Shown here: positions 501-51,387 of the stretch, in pieces
Layout: the number at the start of each line of letters is the position of its first letter
Position numbering within the stretch: the first letter of the stretch is position 1
DNA from: Deltaproteobacteria bacterium
GTDB lineage: Bacteria; SAR324; NAC60-12
Direction: 5' to 3'
NCBI GenBank assembly: GCA_038150265.1
Contig: JAYOTF010000023.1
Coordinates: 1-51,636, forward strand
Length of the DNA stretch: 51,636 nucleotides
Notes under the pieces: model-generated
Databases searched by the model: none
Told to the model about the DNA's origin: nothing
What the model saw: the letters and a program-made list of their open reading frames with translations, nothing else
Position numbers and translations under genes: made by a program

Positions 501-1142
501 TCAGAGGGACGTCTTGCAGAAATAGAAATCCACGTAGTCGTAACCAGCAGACTCTCGGGCATCCGCGCCTTCCAGCGTCGCCGCCGGAGGCACAATCACC
601 TTCTCGCCCGGTTGCCAGGCTTCCGGAGTTGCAACTCCGTGAGCATCGGAGGTTTGCAGTGCCTTGACCAGGCGCAGGATCTCGTCAATCGAGCGGCCAT
701 TGCTCATCGGATAGTAGACCATTGCTCGCAGGATGCTGTTCGGATCGATGATGAAGGTCGCCCGCACTGCCGAGGTGTCCGCTGCTCCCGGATGAATCAT
801 CCCGTAGGCCTTGGCGACATCCATCTTCAGGTCGGCAATGATCGGGAATCGGACCTCTACGCCAAACTTCTCACGGATGTTGCGGATCCAGGCGATGTGG
901 CTGTGGTGGCTGTCAATCGAGAGTCCAAGCAATTCCGTGTTCAGTTGCTGAAACTCCTCGTGGCGCTTGGCAAAGGCCATGAACTCGGTGGTGCAAACGG
1001 GCGTGAAGTCCGCCGGATGCGAGAACAGTACGAGCCACTTACCCGCGTAGTCACTGAGTTGGCGATTGCCTGCCGTAGTCGGGGCGTTGAAATCCGGTGC
1101 CGTCTCATTCAGGCGTGGAAGGGCTTGGGTCGTTGTTTCCAT
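501..1142 (-). CDS. Peroxiredoxin, Prx6 subfamily
   Basis: FSHPADFTPVCTTE peroxidatic motif, VATPEAWQPGEKV C-terminal region, AGGAGA RBS. Confidence 0.95.
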   Translation of the reverse strand: METTTQALPRLNETAPDFNAPTTAGNRQLSDYAGKWLVLFSHPADFTPVCTTEFMAFAKRHEEFQQLNTELLGLSIDSHHSHIAWIRNIREKFGVEVRFPIIADLKMDVAKAYGMIHPGAADTSAVRATFIIDPNSILRAMVYYPMSNGRSIDEILRLVKALQTSDAHGVATPEAWQPGEKVIVPPAATLEGADARESAGYDYVDFYFCKTSL

Positions 1143-1177
1143 TATCGTTCTCCTGTGTGGATGATCTGTTGAACCTG

Positions 1178-1201
1178 TAATATTTATTTATTTAAATATT
1201 A
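1178..1201. promoter_or_regulatory. AT-rich perfect inverted repeat, candidate operator upstream of prx
   Basis: TAATATTTA-N6-TAAATATTA lies 36-59 nt upstream of the prx ATG. Confidence 0.5.
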
Positions 1202-1282
1202 TGATAATAAAATACATGCTCTGCAGCGGGTTGGGAAATTGTTATTTTCAATGACTTTGATTGTTGTGGCCAATCAGTGTGA

Positions 1283-1581
1283 GACCCTGAGTTTCAGCCT
1301 GTGAAGCGGAAGTGGGCTTGAGATGAGGCAGGTGAGGACAAGCGGGTTGAGGGGCGCAAGCGTGTGCGCGAATGGTGGCGAGTCGGTGAGTCAGGCACGG
1401 TGACGCCGACAAGATGCTACGGCACAAGCTGATCGAGTTCGAGCCCGGCAAGAAGGCAATTGGGCTGAAGTCAACTGCAGAGTGGGTGCCCGTGCTGGAG
1501 CAGGTCAAGCGTGCAGTGCTGAGTGGTGAACGGGGTCAGCAGTTGGCAGCACAGGCTGACTCCGCCAAGGCACAGGCATGA
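1283..1581 (+). pseudogene. Disrupted DUF6641-like gene (mobile-element-associated small protein)
   Basis: Reads DPEFQPVKRKWA*DEAGEDKRVEGRKRVREWWRVGESGTVTPTRCYG with an in-frame TGA at 1319-1321. After a 1-nt frameshift near 1423 it continues KLIEFEPGKKAIGLKSTAEWVPVLEQVKRAVLSGE...TGA 1581. The KRVxxWW...YGxKxIEFxxGKxAI...AVxxGE pattern matches DUF6641 as I recall it. Confidence 0.65.
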
Positions 1582-1584
1582 AAG

Positions 1585-2655
<1,071 letters not shown>

Positions 2656-4851: not shown

Positions 4852-4996
4852 GAAGCGTGATTCCTTGGGCGTCAGGCTGGTCTGGGTGCGGGGATGCGTT
4901 TAAAAGGCACTACCTTAGCACTCCCGGACGCTCAGAGAAAGCCCGGAACCAGGTTTGAGAGGTAGAAGGGAAGGGGCGAGGGGGCCACGAAGGCAG

Positions 4997-5018
4997 GCGA
5001 CTCTCCGAAGAGAGCCGC
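4997..5018 (-). terminator. C(UUCG)G tetraloop hairpin after the RND adaptor gene
   Basis: Minus strand GCGGCTCTC-TTCG-GAGAGTCGC, 8 nt past the stop codon, followed by a pyrimidine-rich tract but no poly-U. Confidence 0.45.
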
Positions 5019-5026
5019 AGGAGGCG

Positions 5027-10760: not shown

Positions 10761-10783
10761 GAGCAAGGGGAAGGTCCAGTGCC

Positions 10784-18730: not shown

Positions 18731-20020
18731 ATGAAGCAGCCTTCTCTGAATGTGGTCATTGCTGGACTGGGCACTGTTGGAAGTGGCGTTGCCACCGTGA
18801 TCACGGACCATGCGGCCAAGGGCGCGCCGGTGCGTGTGGTGGGCGTCTTGGAAAAGAACCCCAACAGCCCCACTGCTGCCCCGTGGCGGGAAAGCCACCC
18901 GGAGTGGTTTCAGCGGAAGCGGGAAGACGTGCTGGCTGATCCGGAGGTGCATGCGATTGTGGAAACCGTGGGAGGGCAGACGTTTGCGAAGGACCTCATT
19001 CTGGAGGCACTGCGAGCAGGAAAGCACGTGGTGACGGCGAACAAGGACCTCATTGCCACCCATGGTCCGGAACTGCTGGAGACCGCCCGGACGCAAGAAC
19101 GCTACCTGCTGTTTGAAGCCGCGGTCGCAGGGGCGATTCCGGTCCTGAGGCTGCTTCAGGACTACGTTCAGGTGAGCGACGTGGAGCGGGTGCAGGGCAT
19201 CTTGAACGGGACCAGCAATTACATTCTCAGCAAGATGGAAACCGACAAGCTCTCCTTTGCGGAGGCGCTTCAGGAAGCACAGGACCTCGGATTTGCCGAA
19301 CAGGATCCGACCAACGATATCGCCGGGTACGATGCCCGCTACAAGTTGGTCATCCTCACCTACCTGGTCACCGGACACTGGCTTTCGCCAGAGCAGATTC
19401 CCCTTGAAGGCATCGACCACCTGGACCTGGCTGATTTTGAATACGCCGAGCGCGTGGGCCGACGGATCAAGCTCATTGCCTCCATGGAGCGTGGCCCCCA
19501 CGGCATCTCCGCGCATGTGCTGCCGATGATGCTTCCTGTGGAAGCCCCCATGGCCAACATCCACGGCTCCACCAATGTGGTGTCGTTGCAGGGGGCGTTT
19601 TCCGATGAAATCACCCTGGTGGGCAAGGGGGCCGGAAGCCTCCCGACGGCTTCTGCGATTGTTGCCGACCTCAACAAGCTCAGCCGCCCCTTTGCCTCCA
19701 ACCTTCCGGAGCCAATGGCGGACTTTTCGCTCCAGCCCTTTGCTGAGCAATCCTTCCGGCACACCCTGCGTTTTGAGGTGTGGGACTCCCCCGGAATCTT
19801 CGGACGCATTGGGCAGGTGCTTGCCGACGAGGGCATCAACATTTATGCTTTAGAGCAGCTTCCCCAGTATCACCGCATTGATCGGGAGGAGCGCCAAGTG
19901 GTGATCTTCACCATGTCGCTCGAAACCTGCCGGGAAGGCATCCTGCAACAGTCGGTGAAGCGCCTCAATGAGGAATCCTTCATGGCAAACCCGGTGGTGA
20001 TCCTGCGCGAACCTGCCTGA
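18731..20020 (+). CDS. hom: Homoserine dehydrogenase with C-terminal ACT domain
   Basis: GLGTVGSG, VVTANK, FEAAVAGAIP, GILNGTSNYIL and GAGSLPTASA motifs. Confidence 0.95.
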   Translation: MKQPSLNVVIAGLGTVGSGVATVITDHAAKGAPVRVVGVLEKNPNSPTAAPWRESHPEWFQRKREDVLADPEVHAIVETVGGQTFAKDLILEALRAGKHVVTANKDLIATHGPELLETARTQERYLLFEAAVAGAIPVLRLLQDYVQVSDVERVQGILNGTSNYILSKMETDKLSFAEALQEAQDLGFAEQDPTNDIAGYDARYKLVILTYLVTGHWLSPEQIPLEGIDHLDLADFEYAERVGRRIKLIASMERGPHGISAHVLPMMLPVEAPMANIHGSTNVVSLQGAFSDEITLVGKGAGSLPTASAIVADLNKLSRPFASNLPEPMADFSLQPFAEQSFRHTLRFEVWDSPGIFGRIGQVLADEGINIYALEQLPQYHRIDREERQVVIFTMSLETCREGILQQSVKRLNEESFMANPVVILREPA

Positions 20021-32679: not shown

Positions 32680-34251
32680 ATGGACCTGAGTTGGGAACAT
32701 TTTTGTCAGAATCATTTCGATTTTCCAGGCCTGACCCTCTCATTGGATACCTCCCGGGTGGGGTGGCCGCGTCCTGAAGACGCTCCTGCCTTTTCGGCGT
32801 TGGAGTCCGCGTTTGCGGCCATGCAGGCGCTTGAAGCAGGCGCCATGGCGAATCCTGATGAACAGCGTCAGGTGGGGCACTACTGGCTCCGGAGTCCGGA
32901 GTTGGCGCCAACCTCGGAGCAGCGTGCTGCCATTGAAGCCTCCCATGAGCAGATCCGGCAGTTTGTGGGCGAGGTTCACCGGGCAGAACTGGTGGGCTCA
33001 ACCGGGAAGCCCTTCACGCAGCTGCTCCTCATCGGCATCGGTGGCTCCGCGCTCGGACCGCAGTTGGTGGCCAATGCCCTCGGTGGCTCCAGCAACCCGA
33101 TGCAGGTGCACTTCTTTGACAACACCGACCCAGACGGCATGGACCGTGTGCTGGAAGCCCTGGAGGGCCAACTGCCACAGACGCTGGTGGTGGTGATTTC
33201 AAAATCCGGAGGAACCAAGGAAACCCGAAATGGCATGCTGGAGGCGCAGCATGCGTTCCTGAAGGCCGGCCTTGAGTTTGCCCGGCACGCCGTCGCCGTC
33301 ACCGGAGTCGGAAGCGCCCTCTCAGAAACGGCTGCTGCCGACGGCTGGCTGGAACGGTTCCCGATGTGGGACTGGGTCGGAGGACGAACCTCGGAAACCG
33401 CGGTGGTGGGGTTGCTCCCAGCCGCCCTGCAGGGCCTCGACTGGGAAGGAATGCTGGACGGGGCTCGTGAGATGGACGCGGTGACCCGGATTCCAGACGT
33501 GCGGCAAAACCCTGCCGCGCTGCTGGCCCTCGCGTGGCACACCCTGACGGAAGGCAACGCCCAGAAAGCGATGGTGGTGCTGCCGTACAAGGACCGCCTG
33601 GAACTCTTCAGCCGCTACCTGCAGCAGCTGGTGATGGAGTCCCTCGGCAAGGAGCAGGACCTCTCGGGCGCGACCGTGCACCAGGGCCTGACGGTTTACG
33701 GCAACAAGGGCTCAACCGATCAGCACGCCTACATTCAGCAGCTGCGAGAGGGCCCCAACGACTTCTTTGCCGTCTTTCTGGAAGTCCTGAAGGACCGGGA
33801 GGGCGTGACCATCGACGTGGAGCCCGGGGTGACCTCTGGAGACTACCTCCACGGCTTCTTTCAAGGAACCCGGACCGCCCTGGCAGAAAATGAGCGGGCG
33901 TCCTTGACCCTGACGCTGGAGCAGGTGAACGCCTTCAGTGTGGGAGCGCTGATTGCGCTGTTTGAGCGGGCGGTGGGGCTGTATGCCTCGCTGGTCGGCA
34001 TCAACGCCTACCACCAGCCTGGAGTGGAAGCCGGGAAGGTGGCGGCCGGTGCCGTGATTGACCTGCAGGGCAAGAGCCTCGGGTGGTTTCAGCAAAACAG
34101 CGGTCGCGCGGTGACGGCTCCGGAGCTGGCCCAAGAATTGGGTCAGGCCGCAGACACCGAGACGCTCTTCCGCATCTTGAGGCACCTGGCGGCCAACAAC
34201 CGCCTGACCCAATCCGGGACGGGTCCGGAGGCTCGCTTTCAGGTGGGCTAA
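32680..34251 (+). CDS. pgi: Glucose-6-phosphate isomerase
   Basis: [32 protein letters not shown] and QPGVEAGK motifs. Confidence 0.96.
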
Positions 34252-35024
34252 GGCGTGGTCAGAGAGGTGAGCCGGTGCCGCGTTTCGCCTTCTGTAAACT
34301 CCAGAATCCAGTGGGGGGCCGGCTTGGCGATCAGAAATCGAAAGTGTGTCTTGCTTTTCGGGAGCATCAACCGCAACATCGCGGACTCCGGATAGGCAAG
34401 GATTTGGTCGGCCTGAACGCGTCCCAGCTCCGAATCCACCTCCTGGGTGCCTTCTCGTACCACGACCATGCTGACCAGGCTCATGGAACGCGGGAGGTTG
34501 TTGCGCTCCAGCTCCAGAGCCAGCGCCGGAAGGTAGAGGGAGAACGTCAGGCGGGGGTGCTCATCAAAGGCCGACAGGTTCTTGCGGAGAAACAGCATCA
34601 GGGTTTCCAGAGGCACCACACCGGATTGAGGAACATCCAGGGTGAACTCTCGGACGTCTCCTTTCTCCGTCAGGCGGGTTTGGATCTGTCCGGAGGTGTA
34701 GGCATTTTCAATCCGTAGCTCCTTCCGCAGATCTTCTTCGACATAATGAGAGGGCTGCCAGGTCTGAGGATCCAGGCGGACCTGTTTGCGGGAAAAGACC
34801 TCGCCGTCGGGCTTGGTGTTCTCATTGAACTCCAGCAGGAAGGCGGCTTCGTCTCCGGTGCCCTGGGTGTAGCGGAAGACGCTCTGTCCCGTGACCTCCT
34901 GCCGTTGCAGGTGGAAGTGCTCATACACCAGTTCGGTCCCTGCCGAAAGCAAGGGAGCCGCGTGTCCGAGCGCCGGCGTCATTACCAGCAGCACCAGCCA
35001 CCCCATCAGGTGGTTTCGTTTCAT
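34248..35024 (-). CDS. Hypothetical secreted beta-rich protein
   Basis: Signal peptide [22 protein letters not shown]. Convergent overlap with the pgi stop. Confidence 0.7.
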
Positions 35025-35061
35025 CGTGTTCAACATCTTTCCTGGATTCATTCAACTGAAT

Positions 35062-36420
35062 ATGTCTCGACCTCCGGACCGTCCCCGACACTTTCGACGA
35101 CGCCCGTCTCCCTCGGGTTCTCAGCTTTCGGCGCGTTCGGCGGTGCTGCAAGCTTTTTCGCGGTTCGCTCAAGCGCAGGAAGCCTTGCCGGAGCCTCCGG
35201 AGGCCCTGTCTGACCGAGATCGGCGCCTCTACACCCAGATGCTGCAGGGGCTGCTGCGACACGACCGCTGGTTGTCGCAGCTGGTGCGTCAGCGTCTCCG
35301 GACCGGACGGCTTCCGGATCCGGAGGTGGAAGCGGTTTTGAAGCTGGGAGCCCTGGAGCTGTTGTTGCTGGAACGCCTCCCTGATCATGCCACGCTCAAC
35401 GAAGCGGTGCAATTGGTTCGTGAACGCGGGTGGGCCCGAGCAGCAGGTTTGGTGAATGCCGTCCTCCGGACGCTGCAGCGCGATCGAGACGCCGGACGCA
35501 TTGATCCGGCAGAGGGGACGCTGGCCGTTCGGACCTCTCATCCAGACTGGATGGTGGCGCGCTGGGAAGCCACTTACGGCCCAGACACGACCCGACAGAT
35601 CTGTGAGGCCAACAACACCTTTGAAGGTGTGACGCTGGTACCCGCTCCGGGTTGGGAGGGCGCTCGCCTGAAAGAAGCGCTGGAGGCGGAAGGCCTGACC
35701 CTTGAGCCCCACCCGGCGCATCCGGAGCTCTGGCGCGCGCCTCGAAGCGCTGGACTCTGGGACAGTGAAGCGTACCGCGCCGGAGGCTTTTGGGTGCAGG
35801 ATTCCTCATCGTTTCTGTTTGCTGAGGCCGTTGCTCCGCTCCTGACGGGGCAGGGGTTGGACGTCTGTGCCGCGCCCGGAGGCAAGACCCTCGGGCTGCT
35901 CCGTCAGCGTCCGGACCTCACGCTTCTGGCTGCCGATCGCTCCCTGGAGCGCCTGAAGGCCCTCCGCCGCAACTTCAGGAGGCTGAACCTGCCGCTTCCG
36001 GAGTTGCTGGTGGCCGATGGAACGGAGCTGCCGTTTGCGGCAGAGCGCTTTGATTGGATTCTGCTGGATGCCCCGTGTTCCGCGACCGGGACCATTCGTA
36101 AGAACCCGGACTTGAAGTGGCGCCGCTCTGCTGACACCTTATTGGGCCAATGTTCTCTTCAGCGCCACCTCCTGTTTGAAGCTGCCCGGCTGGTCCGTCC
36201 CGGGGGAACGATCGTGTATGCCACCTGCTCCCTGGAGCCGGAGGAGAACGAGCATCAGGCCCAGGCCTTCCTGGAGGCGCATTCCGATTTTGAAGCGCTG
36301 GCGTTTCCCCAAACCGCGGGCTCTGCCCGCTGGGTGACCCCTGAAGGCGCCCTCAAGATTGTGACGGATTCTGACCACATGGGCTTCTTTTCCCGGCTCC
36401 TGCGGAAAAAAAGCTCTTGA
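35062..36420 (+). CDS. rsmB: 16S rRNA m5C967 methyltransferase RsmB (NusB-like plus Sun/Fmu domains)
   Basis: LVNAVLR, SHPDW, DVCAAPGGKT, LLDAPCSATG and YATCS motifs. Confidence 0.9.
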   Translation: MSRPPDRPRHFRRRPSPSGSQLSARSAVLQAFSRFAQAQEALPEPPEALSDRDRRLYTQMLQGLLRHDRWLSQLVRQRLRTGRLPDPEVEAVLKLGALELLLLERLPDHATLNEAVQLVRERGWARAAGLVNAVLRTLQRDRDAGRIDPAEGTLAVRTSHPDWMVARWEATYGPDTTRQICEANNTFEGVTLVPAPGWEGARLKEALEAEGLTLEPHPAHPELWRAPRSAGLWDSEAYRAGGFWVQDSSSFLFAEAVAPLLTGQGLDVCAAPGGKTLGLLRQRPDLTLLAADRSLERLKALRRNFRRLNLPLPELLVADGTELPFAAERFDWILLDAPCSATGTIRKNPDLKWRRSADTLLGQCSLQRHLLFEAARLVRPGGTIVYATCSLEPEENEHQAQAFLEAHSDFEALAFPQTAGSARWVTPEGALKIVTDSDHMGFFSRLLRKKSS

Positions 36421-36423
36421 TTT

Positions 36424-36439
36424 TGGACCTGGTTTTGCA
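36424..36439 (+). promoter_or_regulatory. Candidate sigma-54 -24/-12 promoter of the dksA-fliR-flhB operon
   Basis: TGGACCTGGTTTTGCA has exact GG-N10-GC spacing with TTGCA, about 60 nt upstream of the ATG. Confidence 0.5.
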
Positions 36440-36499
36440 AGTATTACGTGCTTTTCTTATTAAACGCTCCTTGGCTTGGATCGTGGTTCTAGAGGATTT

Positions 36500-36889
36500 A
36501 TGAACGAAATCAAACAGCTACTACTTACCCGCAAAGAAGAGATCCTGGCTGGGTTGCGCGGACTCCGCGCAGAAGAGATCGACGATTCCCGTCGTGAGAT
36601 CGGGGACGACATTGACAACTCCGTGGAGTCTCAGGAGCACGAGATGCGGCTGCTCCTGCAAGACCGGGAGCGCCTGCAGCTTGAAGAGATCGAGGAGGCG
36701 ATCAACCGGATTGCCATTGGCGAATACGGGTTTTGTGAAGAGTGTGGGGATGAGATTGCCAAGAAGCGCCTGATGGTGATGCCCCTGGCGCGCATGTGCA
36801 TTTCCTGCCAGCAGGAGCAGGAGCGCTCCGGAGGCGGGGCCCTGAGCCGGGCGCCCTATTCCCAGTCCTACAACGTCCGGGAGGATTAA
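36500..36889 (+). CDS. dksA: DksA/TraR C4-type zinc finger protein
   Basis: Coiled-coil tip GDDIDNS and YGFCEECG...RL...P.ARMCISCQ zinc finger. Confidence 0.85.
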   Translation: MNEIKQLLLTRKEEILAGLRGLRAEEIDDSRREIGDDIDNSVESQEHEMRLLLQDRERLQLEEIEEAINRIAIGEYGFCEECGDEIAKKRLMVMPLARMCISCQQEQERSGGGALSRAPYSQSYNVRED

Positions 36890-36895: not shown

Positions 36896-37687
36896 ATGGC
36901 GGATCTGCTGAACTACGACGCGGCCCAGCTGCTCGGGTTCATTCTCGTGCTGATCCGCATTGGAAGCATGACCCTCACTGCACCGATCCTGAGCAGCAGC
37001 AACCTGTTTCCTCAGGCAAAGGTGGGGCTGTCGGTGGTGATGGCACTCATCATCTATCCGTTTGTGCCCGACCTTCCGGTGGCGCCGAATCAGCCCAGCC
37101 AGTACGTGCTCCTGATCTTTGGGGAGTTGCTGATTGGGCTGGTGCTGGGATTTTTGGGGCGGGCGATGTTTGCCGCCGTGGAATTTGCTGGCAGCATCAT
37201 TGGTCTGCAGATGGGCCTCAGCATGGCCAACGTCTTCGACCCGCAGTCGCAGCAGCAGGTGTCGCTGATTGGGCAGTTTGAGAACATCTTGGCGACCCTG
37301 GTCTTTTTGGTGCTGGACGGGCACCTGCTGATCATTCAGGCGCTCATCCGGAGCTACGACCTGCTTCCGGTGGGGGGCGCTCACATCAACAATGAGCTGA
37401 TGCAGATGATCACCCGGGTGACGGCTGGCGTGTTCTCGATTGGGTTCCAGCTGGGCGCCCCGCTGATCGTTTCGCTCTTTCTGGCAAACCTGATCATTGC
37501 CCTGCTGTCTCGAGCCGTCCCGCAGATTCAGGTTTTTGTGGTGGGCTTCCCCCTGACCCTGCTCCTGGGGTTCTTCTTCATCATGGTCGGCTTGCCGTTC
37601 TTCATCCCCGCGTTGCGGCAGATGTTTGGCATGCTGGACAACCAAATGCTGGACGCCTTGCGCGTCCTGGCACTTCCCAGCCCCTAG
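36896..37687 (+). CDS. fliR: Flagellar biosynthetic protein FliR
   Basis: AGSIIGLQMGLSMANVFDP, LDGHL and SRAVPQIQVFVVGFP motifs. Confidence 0.95.
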   Translation: MADLLNYDAAQLLGFILVLIRIGSMTLTAPILSSSNLFPQAKVGLSVVMALIIYPFVPDLPVAPNQPSQYVLLIFGELLIGLVLGFLGRAMFAAVEFAGSIIGLQMGLSMANVFDPQSQQQVSLIGQFENILATLVFLVLDGHLLIIQALIRSYDLLPVGGAHINNELMQMITRVTAGVFSIGFQLGAPLIVSLFLANLIIALLSRAVPQIQVFVVGFPLTLLLGFFFIMVGLPFFIPALRQMFGMLDNQMLDALRVLALPSP

Positions 37688-37690
37688 AGT

Positions 37691-38755
37691 ATGGCGGATC
37701 AAGGCGAGGAAAAGACTGAAGCCCCCACGGAGCGGCGCCGTCAGAAGGCGCGGGAAGAGGGGCAGGTGGCCAACAGCAAGGAACTGACTTCGGCGTTCAT
37801 GCTGGGGGGAGCCGCTCTGCTGCTGTATGCCACCGGATCCCTGTTTCTCGACTCCACCCGAGAAATGTTCCACAACAGCTTTTCAGAGATGGCGCCGGGG
37901 CAGGACTTTACGGTCTCGTTCATTTCCGGAAGGCTGGGGTCGGCTTTTTTGCCGATGCTGCCGATGATGGGGCTGCTTGCCGTGGTGCTGATCGGCCTGG
38001 CCATCTTGCTGTCGGTGGCACAGGTGGGGTTTCAGATCACAGGCAAACCGCTGGCGCCCAAATTTGAACGCATCAGCCCCCTCAGCGGCATCAAGCGCCT
38101 CTTCTCGAGTCAGGCGATTGCGGACTTCCTCAAGAGCCTGGCCAAGCTGACCATCGTGGGCGTCATCGGGTACCTGAGCTACCTGGACATGATCAACAAG
38201 ATGAACGGCCTGTCCGTTTTGCATCCGGAAGAGATTGTCTCGTTTAACTTTCAGGCAATTGCTGAAATTACAGGCAAAATCGTCCTGGCGTTGCTGGCAA
38301 TTGCCATCTTTGACCTGTTTTACCAGCGCTGGTACCACGAGCAGCAGCTGATGATGACGAAGCAGGAGACCAAGGAAGAGCACAAGGAAACGGAAGGGGA
38401 CCCGCAGCTGAAGTCGCGGATTCGTCAGATCCAGCGGGAGATGTCCAGCGCCCGGATGATGCAGGAAGTGCCGAAGGCAGACGCGATTGTGGTGAACCCG
38501 ACCCACTTTGCGGTGGCCCTGAAGTACGACCGCGAGATCATGGCGGCGCCTCAGGTGACGGCCAAGGGGGTGGACTTTTTGGCCCTGCGGATGAAAACCG
38601 TGGCTCGTGAGAGCAACGTCCCCATCATTGAAAAGCCGTCTCTGGCCCGTGAATTGTATGCTAACGTGGAGATCGGCGAGAACATTCCGGAACGTTTCTA
38701 CAAAGCCATTGCTGAAATTCTCGCCCAAATCTACCGCCTCCGGGGGCGACGCTGA
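37691..38755 (+). CDS. flhB: Flagellar biosynthesis protein FlhB
   Basis: EKTEAPT, EGDP and the NPTH autocleavage motif. Confidence 0.96.
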   Translation: MADQGEEKTEAPTERRRQKAREEGQVANSKELTSAFMLGGAALLLYATGSLFLDSTREMFHNSFSEMAPGQDFTVSFISGRLGSAFLPMLPMMGLLAVVLIGLAILLSVAQVGFQITGKPLAPKFERISPLSGIKRLFSSQAIADFLKSLAKLTIVGVIGYLSYLDMINKMNGLSVLHPEEIVSFNFQAIAEITGKIVLALLAIAIFDLFYQRWYHEQQLMMTKQETKEEHKETEGDPQLKSRIRQIQREMSSARMMQEVPKADAIVVNPTHFAVALKYDREIMAAPQVTAKGVDFLALRMKTVARESNVPIIEKPSLARELYANVEIGENIPERFYKAIAEILAQIYRLRGRR

Positions 38756-38869
38756 CGCCACGCGTAACCACCAATCAGCTTGAGATTTCCGGGAGGAACA
38801 AGAAACTCTTTCTTTTCGCTTTGAACAGGCTTTTGCCTCTAGCCACGTCATCCGATTCAGGAACCACCA

Positions 38870-40969
38870 TTGGCATCGAGCACAAGTAGCCCGCAAATCT
38901 CAACCTTCCGCAACTCGGATATTGCTCTGGCAGCCGGGGTGATCAGCGTCTTGCTGATCATGGTGGTCCCGCTTCCGGAGATCATCCTCGACCTGCTCAT
39001 TGCCATGAGCATCACGATGGGGGTGCTGATTCTGTTTGTGGCACTGTTCACGGGCAGCTCGCTTGACTTCTCATCCTTCCCCACCGTCCTCCTCATTTCG
39101 ACGCTGTTCAGGCTCTCGCTGAACGTGGCCTCTACCCGACTGATCCTCCTGAACGGAAACCAGGGGCCCTCTGCCGCGGGAGCGATCATCAAGTCGTTCG
39201 GAGAGTTCGTGGTTGGAGGAAACGTCATTGTCGGAATCATCGTCTTCCTGATTCTCGTCATCATCAACTTCGTCGTGATCACCAAAGGTACGGGCCGGAT
39301 CGCGGAAGTCGCGGCACGCTTTACCCTGGACGCCATGCCTGGTAAGCAGATGGCCATTGATGCCGACCTGAACGCCGGGCTGATTGATGAGACCGAGGCA
39401 AAAGACCGACGAAGCCGCATTCAGCGTGAGTCCGATTACTTCGGTGCCCTGGACGGGGCGAGCAAGTTTGTCCGCGGAGACGCCATTGCCGGCCTGATCA
39501 TCACATCGATCAACATCCTCGGAGGCCTGCTCGTCGGCATCACGCAGTTTGGCATGACCGCCGGAGACGCCTTTCAGTCCTACGCCACCCTCACGGTGGG
39601 AGACGGCCTGGTGTCGCAGATTCCGGCGCTGATCATCTCCATCGCCGCTGGTATCGCGGTGACCAAGGCTTCTGCGGAAAACAAGATTTCGGTCGACCTG
39701 CGGGCGCAGATCTTCGGAAACGTCCAGGCGCTTTATGTCGCTTCTGTGGTGCTGCTGGCGTTTGCCCTCATTCCGGGACTGCCGACAGTGCCCTTTTTGT
39801 TGCTGTCGCTGGTGACCTTCCTCCTGGCAAGATCGAGCAAGAGTCAGAGCGAACAAGCTGCCATTCAGATGGAGGCCGACTCCGAGCTGCAGCTGCAGCA
39901 GGAGCTTTCGGAAGAGCCGGAGGACATTGCCTCGTTGCTGCCGATTGATGTGCTGGGGCTTGAGTTGGGCTATGGTCTGATTCCGCTGGTGGATGAAGAG
40001 CAGGATGGCGAATTGCTCAAGCGCGTCAAGGCGATCCGGCGTCAGATGGCTCTGGATTTCGGTTTCATTGTGCCACCGTTGCACATCAAGGATAACCTCG
40101 AGCTCTCTCCAGGCGAGTACTCCATTACCATCAAGGGCATTGAAGTGGCCCGAGCGGAGCTGATGGTGGGGCACTTCCTGGCGATGAAAACAGGCGAGGT
40201 TGATGAGGAGATCCCCGGTGTGGATACCGTGGAACCCGCCTTTGGGCTTCCGGCCATCTGGATTGCAGCGGAAGATGAGGAACGGGCGCAGTTTGCCGGC
40301 TACACCGTGGTCGATCAGCCTACGGTGCTGGCGACCCACATCACCGAAATTCTGAAAACGCACGCCCACGAGTTCATTGGCCGTCAGGAGGCACAGAAGC
40401 TGCTGGATTCCTTTGCCAAGAGTGAACCGAAAGTGGTCGAGGAGCTGGTTCCGGGACTGCTGCCGTTGGGTGTGGTGCAGAAAGTGCTACAGAACCTGTT
40501 GCGGGAGCTGATCTCCATCCGCGACCTGCACACCGTACTGGAAACCCTGGCCGACGCCTCTTACGTCACCAAGGATCCGGACCTGCTGACGGAACACGTC
40601 CGTCAGGCCCTTGCCCGCCAGATCACCCGGCAGTACCAGACTCCGGATGGCATGTTGCCCCTGATCACGCTCTCGCAGGAGCTGGAGAATCAGATCGCCA
40701 ACTCCATTCAGGACTCTGGGCAGGGCGCCTACCTGGGGCTCAGCCCGGCAGTGGCTCAGATGATCATCAATGGAATTGACTCGATGATGGAGCAGTTCAC
40801 CTTGAACAACTACCAACCGCTGCTGCTGTGCTCCCCGTTGATTCGCCCTCACGTCCGTCGCCTGGTGGAGCGCTTCCTGCCCAACCTGGTCGTGCTCTCG
40901 CACAATGAAGTCGCCCAGGATGTCCGCATTGAAGCCCTGGGCATGGTGGAACTCGTCGGCAACGAGTAA
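38870..40969 (+). CDS. flhA: Flagellar biosynthesis protein FlhA
   Basis: RIAEVAARFTLDAMPGKQMAIDADL and DGASKFVRGDAIAG motifs. TTG start. Confidence 0.97.
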   Translation: MASSTSSPQISTFRNSDIALAAGVISVLLIMVVPLPEIILDLLIAMSITMGVLILFVALFTGSSLDFSSFPTVLLISTLFRLSLNVASTRLILLNGNQGPSAAGAIIKSFGEFVVGGNVIVGIIVFLILVIINFVVITKGTGRIAEVAARFTLDAMPGKQMAIDADLNAGLIDETEAKDRRSRIQRESDYFGALDGASKFVRGDAIAGLIITSINILGGLLVGITQFGMTAGDAFQSYATLTVGDGLVSQIPALIISIAAGIAVTKASAENKISVDLRAQIFGNVQALYVASVVLLAFALIPGLPTVPFLLLSLVTFLLARSSKSQSEQAAIQMEADSELQLQQELSEEPEDIASLLPIDVLGLELGYGLIPLVDEEQDGELLKRVKAIRRQMALDFGFIVPPLHIKDNLELSPGEYSITIKGIEVARAELMVGHFLAMKTGEVDEEIPGVDTVEPAFGLPAIWIAAEDEERAQFAGYTVVDQPTVLATHITEILKTHAHEFIGRQEAQKLLDSFAKSEPKVVEELVPGLLPLGVVQKVLQNLLRELISIRDLHTVLETLADASYVTKDPDLLTEHVRQALARQITRQYQTPDGMLPLITLSQELENQIANSIQDSGQGAYLGLSPAVAQMIINGIDSMMEQFTLNNYQPLLLCSPLIRPHVRRLVERFLPNLVVLSHNEVAQDVRIEALGMVELVGNE

Positions 40970-41009
40970 GCCCCCTCTGGAATTTTCTATAACGTAGATT
41001 GGATACCCC

Positions 41010-42284
41010 ATGAATCTTAAGCGTTACCGCGTCAATACCATTCAGGAAGCGTTGCAGATGATCAAACGCGACCTTGGTCCGGATGCTGTGATCGTCTCCA
41101 CCCGACAAGTCCGGGAGGGCAAAGGAACGTTTGGCCTGTTTGGGAAAACGATGCTTGAGGTGACCGCTGCCAAAGATGACCGCAAGAACGGAGGGGATGT
41201 CCTCACCAAAACGAAGCTTCCTGCGGCTTACAAGGCACCCGCGTCTTCCTCGGAGGAAGGACCACCGGCTTCGGCGCCCGCGGCGTCCGGAGGCTTCCAG
41301 GACCCTCAGAAGGCGCTGATGCCCATTCGGCAGGAGCTGCACAGCCTCCGGGAGCTCGTTCAGGAGCTGAGCAGCCGCAACACCGCTTATGAGGGCTATT
41401 CGGTGACGCAGCTCAAGCATGAGCTGGGAGAAATGCGGCACATGCTGCACCTGATGGCTTCCCGCAATAGCGTCCAGGAAGACCTGAACCTGCCGGAAAA
41501 CCTGATGGTCCTCTACCAGCAGATGAAGTTTGGGGGCATGGAAGAAAAATTTGCCCGCAGGCTGGTGCTGGAGGCGCAGAAGAACATCACTGAGGAAGAC
41601 CTCCAGAATTTCTCGTATGTGAAGATCTTCATTGCCCGGATGCTGATGAAGGTCCTCAAGACCTCTCGAGGCGTGGAGGGCGTCACGGGCTCCCAGAAGA
41701 TCATTGCGCTCATTGGGCCCACCGGGGTGGGCAAGACCACGACGGCGGCGAAGATTGCCTCGGAGCAGATGCTGCGTTACAAGCGCAAGGTGGCCCTCAT
41801 CACCATTGACACCTTCCGGATTGCCGCGGTTGAGCAGCTCCGGACCTATGCCAAGATCATCAATGTTCCGCTGAGTACGGTCTCCAACAAGGAAGAGCTC
41901 GACAAGGCCATTGAGAGCTACTCCGATTATGAAGTGATCATCATTGACACCGGAGGCTGCTCGCAGCGCGATGAGAACCAGATGTTTGAACTCCGCAACA
42001 TCTTTGATGAGCGGGGCCGGATTCACAACCTGCTGGTGCTGAGTGCGACGACCAAAGACAACGACATGAATGAGATCACCCGGCGCTTTGGGACGCTTCC
42101 CCTCGAGGGCATCGTCTTTACCAAGCTGGATGAAAGCTCGTCGTATGGCTCGCTGTTCAACCACGTGATCCGTTTCAAGAAGCCAATTTCCTTCCTGACG
42201 ACGGGACAGAAGGTTCCGGAGGACATTGAAATGGCCACCAAGGAACGCCTGGTGGATCTGCTGCTGAACATTTCCGGCTCATGA
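41010..42284 (+). CDS. flhF: Flagellar SRP-family GTPase FlhF
   Basis: GPTGVGKTTT, DTFRIAAVEQL, TKLDE and GQKVPED motifs. Confidence 0.95.
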   Translation: MNLKRYRVNTIQEALQMIKRDLGPDAVIVSTRQVREGKGTFGLFGKTMLEVTAAKDDRKNGGDVLTKTKLPAAYKAPASSSEEGPPASAPAASGGFQDPQKALMPIRQELHSLRELVQELSSRNTAYEGYSVTQLKHELGEMRHMLHLMASRNSVQEDLNLPENLMVLYQQMKFGGMEEKFARRLVLEAQKNITEEDLQNFSYVKIFIARMLMKVLKTSRGVEGVTGSQKIIALIGPTGVGKTTTAAKIASEQMLRYKRKVALITIDTFRIAAVEQLRTYAKIINVPLSTVSNKEELDKAIESYSDYEVIIIDTGGCSQRDENQMFELRNIFDERGRIHNLLVLSATTKDNDMNEITRRFGTLPLEGIVFTKLDESSSYGSLFNHVIRFKKPISFLTTGQKVPEDIEMATKERLVDLLLNISGS

Positions 42285-42300
42285 GTTTTTCCCAGTCGCG

Positions 42301-43188
42301 ATGAACATGGATCAAGCCAGCTCGTTGCGCCGCATTGTGCATGAGACCTCTTTGCCGCGCCGTCAGGCACGGGTTCTGAGTGTGACCAGCGGCAAGGGAG
42401 GCGTGGGAAAAACCAATGTCTCCATCAACCTCGCCTATGCGCTGGCCAGCCTGGGCCGTCGCGTGTACCTGCTGGACGCAGACCTGGGGTTGGCCAACAT
42501 TGACGTCATGCTCAACCTGACTCCCGACTACACCATTGAGCACGTGCTGTCTGGAGAGAAGCACCTCCGGGACATTGTCCTGGATGGCCCGGGAAACGTA
42601 AAAGTCCTGCCTTCGGGCTCCGGAGTGGTGGAGTTGGCTGAACTCGGAGAGGAGGATCAGGAAAACCTGATGCAGATGCTGGCCGAGCTGGAAGAGAGCA
42701 TTGACTACCTGATCATTGACACCGGCGCTGGCATCTCGTCCGGTGTGCTGCGCTTCAACGTCAGCGCTGACGAGGTGCTGCTCGTGGCCACCCCGGATCC
42801 GTCTTCCCTGACCGATGCGTACTCCACGATCAAGGTGATGGTCAACCGTTACAACGTCCGGAGCTTTAACCTGATTGCCAACTCTGTGGCCTCGCAAGCC
42901 GAAGGCCGGAACGTGTTTGAGCGACTCCAGAAGGTCACCCGCGACTTTCTGCAGGTGGAGCTGAACTACCTGGGCTTCATTCCGCGAGACACCGACTTGG
43001 CCAAATCAGTCCGGATGCAGCGTCCCTTACTTGAAGCTTTCCCCAACTCCCCAGCAGCCAAAAGCCTCCGTGGCATGGCCACTCGTCTGGAGGAGGCGAC
43101 CAACAACGCGGTTTCGCTTTCTGAGATGCCCTTTGAGGATCAACCTCGCTTCTGGGAGCGTTTCTTGCAGTGGAAGGAGCGGAAGTAA
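42301..43188 (+). CDS. flhG: MinD-like flagellar number regulator FlhG/FleN
   Basis: DQASSLR N-terminus, SGKGGVGKT, DADLGLAN and DTGAG motifs. Confidence 0.93.
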   Translation: MNMDQASSLRRIVHETSLPRRQARVLSVTSGKGGVGKTNVSINLAYALASLGRRVYLLDADLGLANIDVMLNLTPDYTIEHVLSGEKHLRDIVLDGPGNVKVLPSGSGVVELAELGEEDQENLMQMLAELEESIDYLIIDTGAGISSGVLRFNVSADEVLLVATPDPSSLTDAYSTIKVMVNRYNVRSFNLIANSVASQAEGRNVFERLQKVTRDFLQVELNYLGFIPRDTDLAKSVRMQRPLLEAFPNSPAAKSLRGMATRLEEATNNAVSLSEMPFEDQPRFWERFLQWKERK

Positions 43189-43247
43189 TGCTTTCGTCAC
43201 AACACACCGGGGCCACGCCCCCTGAACGCCCCGAGCCTTTATTTCGG

Positions 43248-43994
43248 ATGTCCCAAAAGACCAACCCTTACGCCGAAAAATCGCAGTACAGCCGGGAGGA
43301 CTTGGTGCTCCAGCACGCCCCGCTGATCAAGCGCATTGTCAGTCGGATGGCGGCTCGCTTTCCTCCAGGGGTCGATCAGGAGGAGCTGATTCAGGCAGGG
43401 ATGATTGGGCTGCTGGACGCGGTGGACAAATTTGACCCCAGCAAGGATGTCCAGTTCAAGACCTATGCGGAATTCCGCATCAAGGGGGCAATTCTCGACG
43501 AGCTGCGGTCCATGGACTGGGTGCCCCGTTCCGTCCGGAATGCTGCAACGGAATGGGACGAAGCGTGGCGCGCCAAGGCCTCGGAGCTAGGGCGGGAACC
43601 CTCGGACAACGAAATGGCGAACCAGTTGGGGTATTCGCTTTCGGAGTACCACGATTTCCTGGGGAAGGCACGGCCGATTCCATTGATTTCCTTTGAGGAA
43701 TTCAGCGCCGGGCTGGACGATGACGAGAGTGTGAGCCTGCTGGATGCGATCAGCGATCCGGATGCGAAGGATGCCTACGACTCCCTCTCCATGCAGCAAC
43801 TGCAGGACCAGGTGGCCCTGGCCATTGAGACCCTCACGGAGCAGGAGCAGATGGTTCTGGCTCTCTACTACAACGAGGAGCTGAACCTGAAGGAAATTGG
43901 GCAGGTCCTGGGAGTGGTCGAATCGCGGGTCTCGCAAATCCGGACCAAGTCCATCCTCAAGCTCAGGGCAAAGCTCAAGGAAGTGATCAACTGA
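43248..43994 (+). CDS. fliA: RNA polymerase sigma factor FliA (sigma-28)
   Basis: RIKGAILDELRSMDWVPRS and LKEIGQVLGVVESRVSQ motifs. An alternative start at 43188 (TAATG overlap) is possible. Confidence 0.95.
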   Translation: MSQKTNPYAEKSQYSREDLVLQHAPLIKRIVSRMAARFPPGVDQEELIQAGMIGLLDAVDKFDPSKDVQFKTYAEFRIKGAILDELRSMDWVPRSVRNAATEWDEAWRAKASELGREPSDNEMANQLGYSLSEYHDFLGKARPIPLISFEEFSAGLDDDESVSLLDAISDPDAKDAYDSLSMQQLQDQVALAIETLTEQEQMVLALYYNEELNLKEIGQVLGVVESRVSQIRTKSILKLRAKLKEVIN

Positions 43995-45467: not shown

Positions 45468-48143
<2,676 letters not shown>

Positions 48144-48207
48144 CCCCTGACGCTCCTCCCTGATCTCCCGCCGCCGTTTGTCAACCCACTGCTGCGTTGA
48201 GGTCGTG

Positions 48208-49086: not shown

Positions 49087-49113
49087 ACCTCTGCCTGCTT
49101 TGAGGAACTACGC

Positions 49114-50031
49114 ATGATAACGTTTCTGATCCGTCGCCTCCTCAGCGGAGCGGCTTCGATGCTGGTGGTGGCCTTTTTGGTGTTTTTCCTGCTCCGGGCT
49201 CTGCCCGGGGGACCCTTTGACACGGAAAAGAGCCTTCCGCCAGAGATCATCAAGAACATTGAAGCCTACTACGGGCTCGACTTGCCCCCGTGGCAGCAGT
49301 TCCTGAATTACCTCTGGAACGCGGTTCGCGGCGACCTTGGGGTCAGCTACTCGCAGCGTGACCTTCCCGTGAGTGAGCTGATCCTGACGCGAGTACCGGT
49401 TTCAGCCGAACTGGGAGCGTACTCAATGGTGCTGGCGTTGGTGCTGGGGATTCCGTTGGGGGTGGTGGCGGCGTACTACCACAACCGGGCTCCGGATTAC
49501 ATTGCGAGCTTCATTGCCATTGTTGGCCGGAGCATTCCGAACATTGCGCTTGCGCCCCTGCTGGCGCTCACTTTTGGGCTTTACCTGAAGTGGTTGCCCA
49601 TTGCGCGCTGGACGCACTGGGATTCCAAAATTTTACCAACCCTTGCCCTGGGGCTGAGTTCTGCAGCACTGATTGCGCGTCTGACGCGTTCGAGCATGCT
49701 GCAGGTCATCCGAGACGACTTTGTCCGGACTGCCCGGGCGAAGGGGCTTTCCGAGGTCACGGTCATGTTCCGGCATGTGCTCAAAAACGCGCTGCTTCCG
49801 GTGCTGACGGTGTTCGGACCACTGTTTGCGTACACGCTTACCGGCACCCTGGTGGTGGAGCAAATTTTTGCGATTCCCGGCTTGGGGAGCTACTTCATCA
49901 CCAGCATCAGCAACCGGGACTATCCGGTGGTGATGGGCGTGTACCTGCTTTATGGGCTGCTGGTGATCGTGCTCAATGCGCTGGTCGACATCCTGTATGC
50001 CTGGATTGACCCGCGCATCCGCCTGAACTGA
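49114..50031 (+). CDS. oppB: Oligopeptide ABC transporter permease OppB family
   Basis: PGGPF, TARAKGL (EAA loop), EQIFAIPGLG and RDYP motifs. Confidence 0.9.
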   Translation: MITFLIRRLLSGAASMLVVAFLVFFLLRALPGGPFDTEKSLPPEIIKNIEAYYGLDLPPWQQFLNYLWNAVRGDLGVSYSQRDLPVSELILTRVPVSAELGAYSMVLALVLGIPLGVVAAYYHNRAPDYIASFIAIVGRSIPNIALAPLLALTFGLYLKWLPIARWTHWDSKILPTLALGLSSAALIARLTRSSMLQVIRDDFVRTARAKGLSEVTVMFRHVLKNALLPVLTVFGPLFAYTLTGTLVVEQIFAIPGLGSYFITSISNRDYPVVMGVYLLYGLLVIVLNALVDILYAWIDPRIRLN

Positions 50032-50040
50032 GAACGGGCC

Positions 50041-51387
50041 ATGAAGATCATCGACTCTGTTGCTGCGGTATTCTGTCAGGGAGGCGAGCTGTTTTCCGTC
50101 CGGAGGCAGTCGTACCTGGATGCGTTTCCCGGGTACGATTCATTTCCGGGAGGCAAGGTGGATCGCGGTGATGGCACAAAGCCTCGGGCGCTGAGCGAGC
50201 TTCCGGATCGTCCCCTCGCCGAGGTGAATGCCCTGGTCCGGGAAGTGGAAGAGGAGTTGCAGTTTTCTCTGCCGGAAGGAGTGGCCTCCGGGTCGGTCAC
50301 GTCGGTGAGCTACCTGGCTACTGCGCTTGCTCCCGCGTTAATGCCGGTCCGCTTCCGCCTGCACTTCTTCCGAATTGACCTCACGGAGCGGCCTTCGTTT
50401 GTCCCGGACACCGGAGAATTCAGTGAAACGACCTGGGCCACTCCGGAGGCCCTGCTGGAGCGTTTTGCTCAAGGGGACTCCCTGATGGTCCCTCCGATGC
50501 GCTGGGTGCTTCAGGCGCTGGTACAGGCTCCGGGCGCGACGCATCTGGGAGACCTTTCGCCCATCTATGACGAGGAGCGCTTTGTTCCGAAACTGGAGCC
50601 CCTCAAGGGCATCCAGCAACTGGCGGTGCCATCCAAGACGCTGCCCCCTGCGGACCGGACCAATGCTTTTCTGATTGGAGATGCCGATGCCCCGGGGCTG
50701 CTGATCGACCCGTCTCCTCAGTCGCACGCTGTGCTGGAGCGTCTCATCCAGACGCTCGACGGGACACCCGTATCGGCTCTGTTCCTGACGCATCACCATC
50801 CAGATCATCATCAGCTGGCCCCGGAGTTGGCGCGGCACCTTCAGGTTCCCATTCACCTCAGCGCAGACACGCAGGCCCGGATTTTGGAAAAACACGGCGC
50901 CGATTATTTTGCTGGAATTCCGTTGGTGCTCAGACAGGAAGGGGACGTTGTCACTCGCTGGATGGGAGAGGCGGTCCGCGTGTATGCGGTTCCAGGGCAT
51001 GATGCGGGACAATTGGCGCTGGCCCCGGAGTCCCTGCGCTGGTTCCTCGTTGGCGATCTGATTCAGGGGGTGGGAACCGTGGTCATTCAGGAACCGGAGG
51101 GCAACATGGCCGCGTACTTCCAGACCCTGAAGCGGGTCATTGCGCTGGGTCCGGCTGTGATTCTGCCGTCGCATGGTTTGCTGATGCGCAGCACCTTTCG
51201 GCTGCAGGCCACCCTGCAGCACCGGCAGGAACGGGAGGCTCAGATCCTGGCGCTGCACCAGGCTGGGCATGCGGAACAGGCGATTCTCCAGGAAGTGTAT
51301 CAGGGGTTGGATGAACGCCTCCTGCCCTTGGCTCGCCGCAACATCGACTCCCACCTGAAGAAGCTCCAGGAAGAAGGACGCCTCTGA
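50041..51387 (+). CDS. Nudix hydrolase / metallo-beta-lactamase-fold (LACTB2-like) fusion protein
   Basis: FPGGKVD...REVEEE Nudix box. THHHPDH, PGH, GD and PSHG MBL motifs. Winged-helix C-terminus. Confidence 0.85.
   Translation: MKIIDSVAAVFCQGGELFSVRRQSYLDAFPGYDSFPGGKVDRGDGTKPRALSELPDRPLAEVNALVREVEEELQFSLPEGVASGSVTSVSYLATALAPALMPVRFRLHFFRIDLTERPSFVPDTGEFSETTWATPEALLERFAQGDSLMVPPMRWVLQALVQAPGATHLGDLSPIYDEERFVPKLEPLKGIQQLAVPSKTLPPADRTNAFLIGDADAPGLLIDPSPQSHAVLERLIQTLDGTPVSALFLTHHHPDHHQLAPELARHLQVPIHLSADTQARILEKHGADYFAGIPLVLRQEGDVVTRWMGEAVRVYAVPGHDAGQLALAPESLRWFLVGDLIQGVGTVVIQEPEGNMAAYFQTLKRVIALGPAVILPSHGLLMRSTFRLQATLQHRQEREAQILALHQAGHAEQAILQEVYQGLDERLLPLARRNIDSHLKKLQEEGRL

Follow-up and report, generated by a model that had tools for sequence, protein, structure and literature searches.

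The window analysed here is a 51,636-bp stretch of DNA (assembly GCA_038150265.1, contig JAYOTF010000023.1, forward strand) from a bacterium of the SAR324 lineage. It carries a flagellar gene cluster, a separate flagellin gene, and genes for a homoserine dehydrogenase and a peroxiredoxin (Table 1), and it is densely marked by the palindrome TCCGGA. TCCGGA, the BspEI/Kpn2I/AccIII restriction site, occurs 139 times in the window, against 18.24 ± 4.25 copies expected from 100 dinucleotide-preserving shuffles (maximum 29; none reached 139). The palindrome ACCGGT, of the same composition, is present 6 times against 10.3 expected. Coding sequence holds 135 of the TCCGGA copies, distributed 21/41/73 over the three frames, where 300 synonymous-codon shuffles gave 31.3 ± 5.2 (maximum 47); the 4,078 noncoding bases hold 4 copies against 1.2 expected. 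The original prediction, made from the letters of the window, had estimated 135–140 TCCGGA sites with about 17 expected, and about ten ACCGGT sites. These estimates were accurate, and its examples of the three frames (27930, 18940 and 41839) are correct in both translation and gene. It had also taken positions 1–1581 for the remnant of a foreign island. The single TCCGGA there is real, but the foreign origin is not supported: one copy compares with 4.5 expected (Poisson P = 0.06), and the gene in this stretch encodes an ordinary, housekeeping peroxiredoxin.

The source genome, G000, has 3,393,712 bp (3.39 Mb) in 87 contigs, a GC content of 61.2%, and a completeness of 97.8%; the window is its contig C23. 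TCCGGA is found 9,711 times in G000, once per 349 bp, which is 8.69 times the zero-order expectation. None of the other 4,096 possible hexamers is so over-represented, and the runner-up among palindromes, CTGCAG, reaches 3.16. The ratio for TCCGGA is 7.57, 3.95, and 2.39 under first-, second-, and third-order Markov models, and 1.22 at the maximal (fourth) order. The low maximal-order ratio is expected because TCCGGA inflates the counts of its own sub-words, from which that null is built; 54% of all TCCGG in G000 lie within TCCGGA. Among the sixteen NCCGGN words, only the one with T before and A after the core is far over expectation, and the preferences of the two half-sites reinforce each other. 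In G000, the tetramer CTAG is extremely rare (0.05 times expectation; hexamers containing it 0.03–0.06), and GAGCTC and TACGTA stand at 0.43 and 0.36 of the maximal-order Markov expectation.

The excess of TCCGGA is independent of protein sequence and codon usage. A self-trained scorer of open reading frames (ORFs) called 2,711 genes in G000, covering 87% of the genome. These contain 8,634 TCCGGA, compared with 2,079 ± 40 when synonymous codons are shuffled inside each gene with protein and codon usage kept, a 4.15-fold excess; permutation of whole codons gives 1,280. The coding sites comprise 2,025 in the frame TCC-GGA (3.9-fold), 2,376 in xTC-CGG-Axx (3.25-fold), and 4,233 in xxT-CCG-GAx (5.1-fold). 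The 458 kb outside called genes contain 1,078 copies, 7.5 times the zero-order expectation, with 6.8–7.7 in each size class of gaps. Of the positions at which the protein permits a site, 41% (8,632 of 20,936) are occupied, and the log-odds of occupancy relative to codon usage is 1.85. Rare codons are recruited where a site needs them: Leu-Pro-Glu is written CTT-CCG-GAx in 58% of cases, where CTT makes up 10% of leucine codons. Occupancy is low, 3–12%, in contexts that require AGR arginine codons. Site-permissive peptides are 1.23–1.67 times commoner than in amino-acid-shuffled proteins (Pro-Glu 1.65 versus Glu-Pro 0.82), suggesting that the pressure may extend to protein sequence, although this figure involves no comparison with non-enriched relatives.

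TCCGGA is thus a genuine highly iterated palindrome of the SAR324-lineage chromosome, and the force that holds its occupancy at 41% of permitted positions acts on DNA, not on protein or codon choice. The original prediction had proposed that this lineage may have a mechanism creating or maintaining the word, and had named an observed/expected ratio near 1 under Markov or codon-preserving nulls, or confinement to one frame or dipeptide, as grounds for giving the idea up. The ratio stays at 4.15 after codon-preserving shuffles, and the excess extends to all three frames (3.3–5.1-fold) and to noncoding DNA. These results support a lineage-specific mechanism that creates or maintains the DNA word itself; no single dipeptide or codon habit suffices.

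The bases flanking TCCGGA show a weak, symmetric preference for T at −1 (0.32, where the background is 0.19), for C at −2 (0.39), and for G at −3 (0.41). It is likewise seen in 1,074 intergenic sites, and it extends the word to the 12-bp palindrome GCT-TCCGGA-AGC. There is no phased A/T pattern in the flanks. The site is not the core of a longer, REP-like repeat, as the commonest 12-mer around it occurs 57 times among 9,705 sites, and perfect 10-mer palindromes account for 9.3%. Neither is it organized into operator-like arrays, since the densest 500 bp of the genome contains 8 sites. On the 5-kb scale the spread is near Poisson (619 windows, mean 14.5, variance/mean 1.14). Every 5-kb stretch has at least 3 sites, and no foreign island free of TCCGGA was seen in this assembly, from which metagenome binning may have removed such DNA.

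Individual copies are gained and lost from one sister species to the next, yet they persist more often than codon conservation elsewhere would predict. G000 was compared with G002, a species of the same genus, over 324 ortholog pairs with a median amino-acid identity of 90.5%. Where both proteins permit the word, 444 of 829 G000 sites (0.54) are also sites in G002, and G002 has a site at 243 of 1,099 positions (0.22) that are empty in G000. Codons with their third base inside a site are conserved at a rate of 0.678 (1,231 of 1,815), compared with 0.526 expected from the same codons outside sites; the difference is seen for CTT (0.70 versus 0.28), CGT (0.82 versus 0.40), and GGA (0.64 versus 0.46). 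The CpG of the site is not hypermutable, and one-letter variants are not depleted: the deamination products TCTGGA/TCCAGA stand at 2.58 times the zero-order expectation (M4 ratio 1.11), and variants at the outer positions are likewise not scarce. In ribosomal-protein genes only 11 of 67 permissive positions are occupied, against 41% genome-wide (Fisher P = 1.7e-5), and the genes for EF-G and EF-Tu show no such scarcity (10 of 21). The pressure is weak at each site and acts genome-wide.

The copies of TCCGGA are spaced according to the turn of the double helix. For the spacing analysis, occupancy was re-dealt among permissive positions within each frame, so that all protein-level periodicity was kept in the null. 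The ratio of observed to null spacings has a single dominant spectral peak at 10.5 bp, with a power of 1.83, where the highest of 200 null replicates reached 0.48. Spacings of 11–17, 21–26, 34–36, and 44–48 bp are in deficit, and those of 31, 41–42, and 51–52 bp are in excess. The density of pairs at 11–17 bp is 0.26 of the long-range level, and that at 6–10 bp is mildly reduced, to 0.8. The amplitude of the phasing is 0.33 over 12–100 bp, 0.15 over 100–200 bp, and 0.11 over 200–300 bp, and it fades beyond. Repeats do not explain the pattern, because all checked pairs at 18–63 bp, including the in-phase ones, have unique spacers. Nor is it a general property of the genome: with a simpler detrending, the power over noise is 57 for TCCGGA and at most 12.3 at any period for 40 other abundant hexamers. 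In the band of 10–11.2 bp the other hexamers reach at most 9.9, and the highest of them are words overlapping TCCGGA. Copies therefore interact over 20–300 bp through double-helix geometry, with a period of 10.4–10.5 bp specific to this word. Helical phase together with short-range exclusion indicates that something physically senses two copies at once. Among the explanations offered in the original prediction, the binding site of a nucleoid or recombination protein is the one favored by these observations.

The phasing recurs in other genomes, in one genus with the opposite sign. G002 has the same period and the same phase as G000. G013, of genus g12 (56.6% GC, 1,818 sites in 791 kb), has the same period with a power over noise of 17.9, but is shifted by about half a turn: at 29–33 bp, where G000 peaks, it has 3 pairs against 21 expected. 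Under the codon-aware null the amplitude in G013 is 0.16, compared with a maximum of 0.11 in 300 replicates. The second g12 species, G067, has the same dips and phase as G013 (−2.4 rad), and the pooled power over noise of the two is 22. Two low-GC marine genomes of genus g11 resemble G000, with density peaks at 29–33, 40–44, and 50–54 bp and exclusion at 11–17 bp. The inversion speaks against intrinsic mechanics of the word; it favors a reader with a geometry that is able to change.

Within the window, the in-phase and abutting pairs are listed in Table 1 with the neighboring genes. A stretch that appeared gene-free and rich in sites, 35052–36475, proved to be an RsmB-type gene, which the caller missed because its ORF overlaps the convergent upstream gene; its true start is probably downstream of the longest-ORF start.

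Table 1 TCCGGA sites and neighboring genes in the window.
Feature	Position	Strand	Remarks
TCCGGA, 139 copies	622–50447 (last copy 50442–50447)		Even spread, 3–12 per 2.5 kb
Frame 0 example, TCC-GGA, Ser-Gly(-Lys)	27930–27935	+	Flagellin gene 27537–29150 (Flagellin_N, Flagellin_C), apart from the flagellar cluster
Frame 1 example, xTC-CGG-Axx: CTC-CGG-ACC, Leu-Arg-Thr	41839–41844	+	FlhF-type SRP54 GTPase 41010–42284, adjoins FHIPEP/FlhA
Frame 2 example, xxT-CCG-GAx: GAT-CCG-GAG, Asp-Pro-Glu	18940–18945	+	Homoserine dehydrogenase 18731–20020 (Homoserine_dh)
In-phase pair	22242–22288		41-bp spacing, about 4 helical turns, favored; genome-wide peaks 31, 41–42, 51–52 bp
Further in-phase pairs	7697/7739; 7583/7615; 8268/8308		Spacings 42, 32, and 40 bp
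Abutting copies, TCCGGATCCGGA	30146–30157		Second abutting pair 35313–35324
7-bp pair of TCCGGA	32888–32900
Densest gene of the window	23365–23955	+	8.5 sites per kb (5 in 591 bp); encodes an XRE-type HTH plus cupin protein
Stretch with one site	1–1581		55% GC; 1-Cys peroxiredoxin gene 501–1142, minus strand (AhpC-TSA, 1-cysPrx_C)
RsmB/Sun-type 16S rRNA methyltransferase	34891–36420	+	Longest ORF overlaps convergent gene 34248–35051 (−) by about 160 bp
DksA/TraR-type zinc-finger gene	36476–36889		Precedes the flagellar cluster
Flagellar export/regulation cluster	36896–43994		fliR-flhB-flhA-flhF-flhG(ParA/MinD-type)-fliA

The abundance of TCCGGA is a patchy trait of the SAR324 phylum. The closest ValS loci belong to metagenome-assembled genomes labelled SAR324 cluster or 'Deltaproteobacteria', with 61–86% identity. 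TCCGGA stands at 1.7–9.8 times expectation in all but one of the SAR324 loci, even at 38–48% GC, and at 0.6–2.2 in six of the seven non-SAR324 loci fetched alongside, the seventh being an unclassified 'bacterium' locus at 2.6. Whole-genome counts of TCCGGA were compared with those of the reversed word AGGCCT in 88 genomes of the phylum; the ratios are rough because AGGCCT is itself a palindrome and may be depleted. The ratio is at least 3 in 36 of the 88 genomes: 26 of 45 in family f1, none of 19 in f2, 9 of 19 in f7, and one small genome of f4 (357 versus 10). All nine genomes of genus g2 have a ratio of about 1. The zero-order observed/expected ratio is 7.2 in G002, 7.6 in G013, 6.4 in G067, 7.8 in G031, and 9.9 in G050, and it lies at 7.2–9.9 in genome samples spanning 41–61% GC. 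The distribution across the phylum and the range of GC content indicate an old, patchy trait that does not depend on base composition.

In sister lineages the pressure on TCCGGA runs the other way. The ratio to AGGCCT is 0.25 or lower in 11 of the 88 genomes, and in some it is 0.01–0.02. TCCGGA is nearly absent from G088, G089, G091, G092, G086, G090 (f7), G023 (f2), G072, and G073. These nine genomes, of about 3 Mb, contain 15–267 copies, compared with 987–1,882 of the reversed control word. This scarcity suggests that TCCGGA-specific restriction may be active in these lineages. Viral DNA rich in the word was also found: 14 of 80 fetched loci have an observed/expected ratio of at least 5 and at least 10 copies, in a sample biased by a search pattern that required two copies. 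Examples are IMG/VR contigs (L305, L264, L241, L298, and others), one with 55 sites in 12.9 kb (46% GC) and another with 75 in 20 kb (68% GC). The 14 loci have no DNA in common with G000, and one weak protein match was found in only 2 of them, which does not tie them to a host.

We searched G000 for machinery that could write or read the word, and followed the presence of gene families across 31 genomes. G000 has no match to C5 methylases (PF00145), Vsr (PF03852), Type I/IIG N6 methylases, or Eco57I-type enzymes, each of which was detected in control genomes. MutH and SeqA are found in none of the 31 genomes, and the Escherichia coli control was positive for them. A Dcm/Vsr signature is lacking in G000, where C5 methylase and Vsr were not found and the T-for-C variant is not depleted. 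For the Dam-type family, a single match was seen, partial and marginal at 27 bits. CCGG-family endonuclease folds (Bse634I, NgoMIV) and MT-A70 had no match in G000, which carries little weight because the control genomes were equally silent. ComEC and DprA are encoded by G000 and by 31 and 30 of the 31 genomes, respectively, enriched or not; being nearly universal, the competence machinery does not discriminate between the two groups. The ComEC and DprA matches of non-enriched G014 each contain an in-frame stop (TAG, TAA; G014:C146:5513-6151 and G014:C55:6619-7224), which could reflect an assembly error or loss of competence; the copies in other non-enriched genomes are intact.

Two amino-methyltransferases of the N4/N6 type with a TSPPY motif, P0001 and P0002, are encoded by G000. 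Both match solved N4-cytosine methylases weakly, and we take S-P-P-Y to be a mark of the N4-cytosine type. P0001 (258 residues, contig C45) is full-length only in G000 and G001 among the 31 genomes. It lies next to a retron-type reverse transcriptase (best PADLOC model RT_XIII, 6e-70) and a 311-residue protein without a family (L001:35-3159), and the three genes look like a defence island. P0001 was rejected as the writer of a family-wide trait on the grounds of this narrow distribution and neighborhood. P0002 (contig C51, L002:248-1387) matches a Type II methyltransferase model at 1e-35, has the motif order FxGxG then TSPPY and an N-terminal extension rich in Arg, Asp, and Glu, and is the protein that drew the Dam-type match. 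It is solitary and has orthologs at loci L226, L227, and L228. Its conservation in two families of the order and its constant location among housekeeping genes make P0002 a candidate 'housekeeping' orphan methylase. It occurs regardless of whether a genome is enriched, neutral, or avoiding: orthologs are present in non-enriched G003, G014, G006, and G010 and in avoiding G023, and none was found in strongly enriched G018. A role of P0002 in a TCCGGA restriction system of G023 was also considered and dropped, as no endonuclease-like neighbor was recognized, although two neighboring ORFs have no family. The orphan methyltransferase with biased repair suggested by the original prediction thus gains no positive support, though it keeps some probability: G000 has two candidate methylases, neither of which tracks the trait, and the C5, Vsr, and MutH components were not found.

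We hypothesize that a force at the DNA level maintains TCCGGA and that a putative symmetric DNA-binding protein reads its copies in pairs, a reading to which we give an about even chance. TCCGGA would be the core binding site of an abundant dimeric, sequence-specific protein, and molecules on neighboring sites would touch or bridge each other. If they do, the face of the helix on which a site lies would matter, with same-face pairs favored in g1 and g11 and avoided in g12. The density of sites could be kept by selection for coverage of the chromosome by the reader, in the service of nucleoid architecture or self-marking, or by a repair bias that depends on the reader; methylation may or may not take part. 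Several points weigh against this hypothesis. A binding protein alone does not account for the creation of sites, and the higher conservation within sites can result from biased repair equally as from selection. The opposite phase in g12 is awkward for one conserved reader. The phasing in g11 rests on 703 sites from two genomes together, and its spectral peak is not significant. No candidate reader was found in the searches, and SeqA, MutH, and Vsr, which are known to read iterated or methylated palindromes, are missing. The G000 assembly is fragmented, and the simple gene caller missed at least one real gene of the window. A broader and rather doubtful version would make TCCGGA the basis of a chromosome-marking system, in which a lineage-specific reader recognizes the word pairwise across helical turns with a geometry flipped between g1/g11 and g12, and the closely set copies would encode 'self' or architecture; sister lineages without the reader would restrict and purge the word, and some marine phages would have converged on it.

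The alternatives rank, in our judgment, from methylation-linked repair through uptake or recombination drive and intrinsic mechanics to neutral bias. According to Elhai's model of the cyanobacterial palindrome HIP1, an orphan methyltransferase would mark TCCGGA or CCGG, and a methylation-dependent bias of mismatch repair would make and protect sites. We consider this unlikely for SAR324, although the two TSPPY methyltransferases of G000, of which P0002 is solitary and conserved, and the retention of sites above the codon baseline agree with it, as does the pairing of each alternate cyanobacterial HIP with a matching methylase (PMC4390886). Against it stand the distributions of P0002, whose orthologs ignore enrichment, and of P0001, which is nearly confined to G000, and the lack in G000 of matches to C5, Type I/IIG, and Eco57I-type methylases, Vsr, and MutH. 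Neither the deamination products nor the outer variants are depleted, and the model predicts neither helical phasing nor the exclusion at 11–17 bp. A drive through uptake or recombination, in which DNA with TCCGGA is preferred in transformation or by an enzyme of recombination and the word spreads in the gene pool in the manner of uptake sequences or Chi, is also a weak contender. Even spread, presence in all frames and noncoding DNA, turnover with net maintenance, and dialects are features of uptake sequences, and the over-representation of site-permissive peptides and the presence of ComEC and DprA in G000 fit as well. In cyanobacteria, methylated HIP1 is described as raising transformation (bioRxiv 10.1101/2024.09.10.611283); the abundance of HIP1 correlates with type IV secretion system (T4SS) genes, and a role as an uptake sequence has been put forward for it (PMC13756078). 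The competence genes of SAR324, however, occur with and without enrichment. As a 6-bp palindrome found once per 349 bp, TCCGGA falls short of known uptake sequences in length and exceeds them about threefold in density, and it lacks the orientation that Chi requires. Moreover, neither uptake nor Chi models predict a 10.5-bp phase, its inversion in g12, or the short-range exclusion.

The two remaining alternatives dispense with a dedicated machinery. If bending or twisting of TCCGGA were favored in itself, phased copies could provide curvature or a preference in supercoiling without any reader. The period of 10.4–10.5 bp is the helical repeat, and anisotropic bendability would produce an in-phase preference such as that of g1 and g11. 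This is nevertheless a very improbable explanation, as one mechanical property cannot produce the anti-phase preference of g12 with an identical word. A general mechanical need would not raise one hexamer 8.7-fold while neighboring and same-composition words stay near 1, the flanks have no phased A/T pattern, and sister lineages nearly eliminate the word. Least credible of all is a neutral by-product of context-dependent mutation or of codon, codon-pair, or dipeptide preference. The maximal-order Markov ratio of only 1.22, the commonness of the codons TCC, GGA, CCG, and CGG in G000, and that of site-permissive peptides could be read in its favor. It is largely refuted already by the excess over protein- and codon-preserving shuffles in all three frames and over expectation in noncoding DNA, by occupancy, including the recruitment of rare codons such as CTT, by the conservation of codons within sites above that of the same codons outside, and by phasing specific to TCCGGA. 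The trait is also independent of GC content from 41% to 61%. DNA-level maintenance of TCCGGA together with its pairwise reading remains the explanation that we favor.

For some thirty years highly iterated palindromes have posed a problem without a solution (PMC13756078). They have been studied almost only in cyanobacteria. TCCGGA adds a second case that arose independently, in a marine phylum that is uncultured and abundant worldwide, with a different word and properties that narrow down the mechanism. Among the open-access papers searched, no title or abstract opening described genome-wide TCCGGA abundance in SAR324 or elsewhere. The inversion of phase and the occurrence of enrichment, neutrality, and near-elimination within one phylum are natural contrasts by which phylogenetic profiling could find the responsible genes. 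As a compositional signal, TCCGGA is strong enough to help bin SAR324 contigs and to reveal foreign DNA within them. Its pressure on the choice of codons, and perhaps on protein sequence, is not accounted for by codon models.

The closest known relatives of TCCGGA are HIP1 (GCGATCGC) and the alternate cyanobacterial HIPs (PMC4390886, PMC5861425), which are GC-rich palindromes hyper-abundant throughout a lineage in all frames and in noncoding DNA. Three features of HIPs, namely excess, codon independence, and conservation within the motif, were tested and found for TCCGGA, the last by the test described in PMC5861425, that codons in the motif be more conserved than those outside. TCCGGA also shares with HIP1 its scarcity in ribosomal-protein genes and its patchy loss within the lineage. 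It differs in belonging to another phylum and in being a hexamer rather than an octamer. It is about three times denser than HIP1, which occurs roughly once per kb, and its fold-excess is smaller, 8.7 compared with the 15–300 stated for HIP1. A methylase specific for the motif or its core is present where HIP1 is abundant, according to Elhai 2015 (PMC4390886), and current work describes a methylation-dependent boost of transformation (bioRxiv 10.1101/2024.09.10.611283) and a possible role as an uptake sequence (PMC13756078). No matching methylase could be tied to TCCGGA, and no C5 methylase was found in G000. The period found for TCCGGA is helical, whereas that reported for HIP1 is tens of kilobases, and the word 'helical' is absent from PMC5861425. 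Near-elimination of the same word in sister lineages further sets the SAR324 case apart from HIP1.

Other systems share single properties with TCCGGA. In the Dam-SeqA-MutH system, the short palindrome GATC is read genome-wide. Two sites that share a face of the helix are bound as a pair by SeqA, and neighboring copies would therefore depend on helical phase, as those of TCCGGA do. However, GATC is not hyper-abundant in E. coli, and SeqA and MutH were found in none of the 31 genomes searched. The uptake sequences of Pasteurellaceae (USS) and Neisseriaceae (DUS) are 9–12 bp long, non-palindromic, and oriented, and occur about once per kb. They resemble TCCGGA as short words present in all coding frames, evenly spread, and divided into lineage dialects, for which drive rather than a function of each copy is possible. 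TCCGGA differs from them as a 6-bp palindrome with weak symmetric flanks whose occurrence ComEC and DprA do not track, and we know of no helical phasing between copies of uptake sequences. Chi is a strand-oriented word, skewed with the direction of replication; TCCGGA reads the same on both strands and thus has no orientation. Avoidance of restriction sites is, like the enrichment of TCCGGA, a lineage-specific pressure on a short palindrome, and the 11 SAR324 genomes with TCCGGA at a quarter or less of the control word resemble it, while in G000 and 35 other genomes of the same phylum the pressure is reversed.

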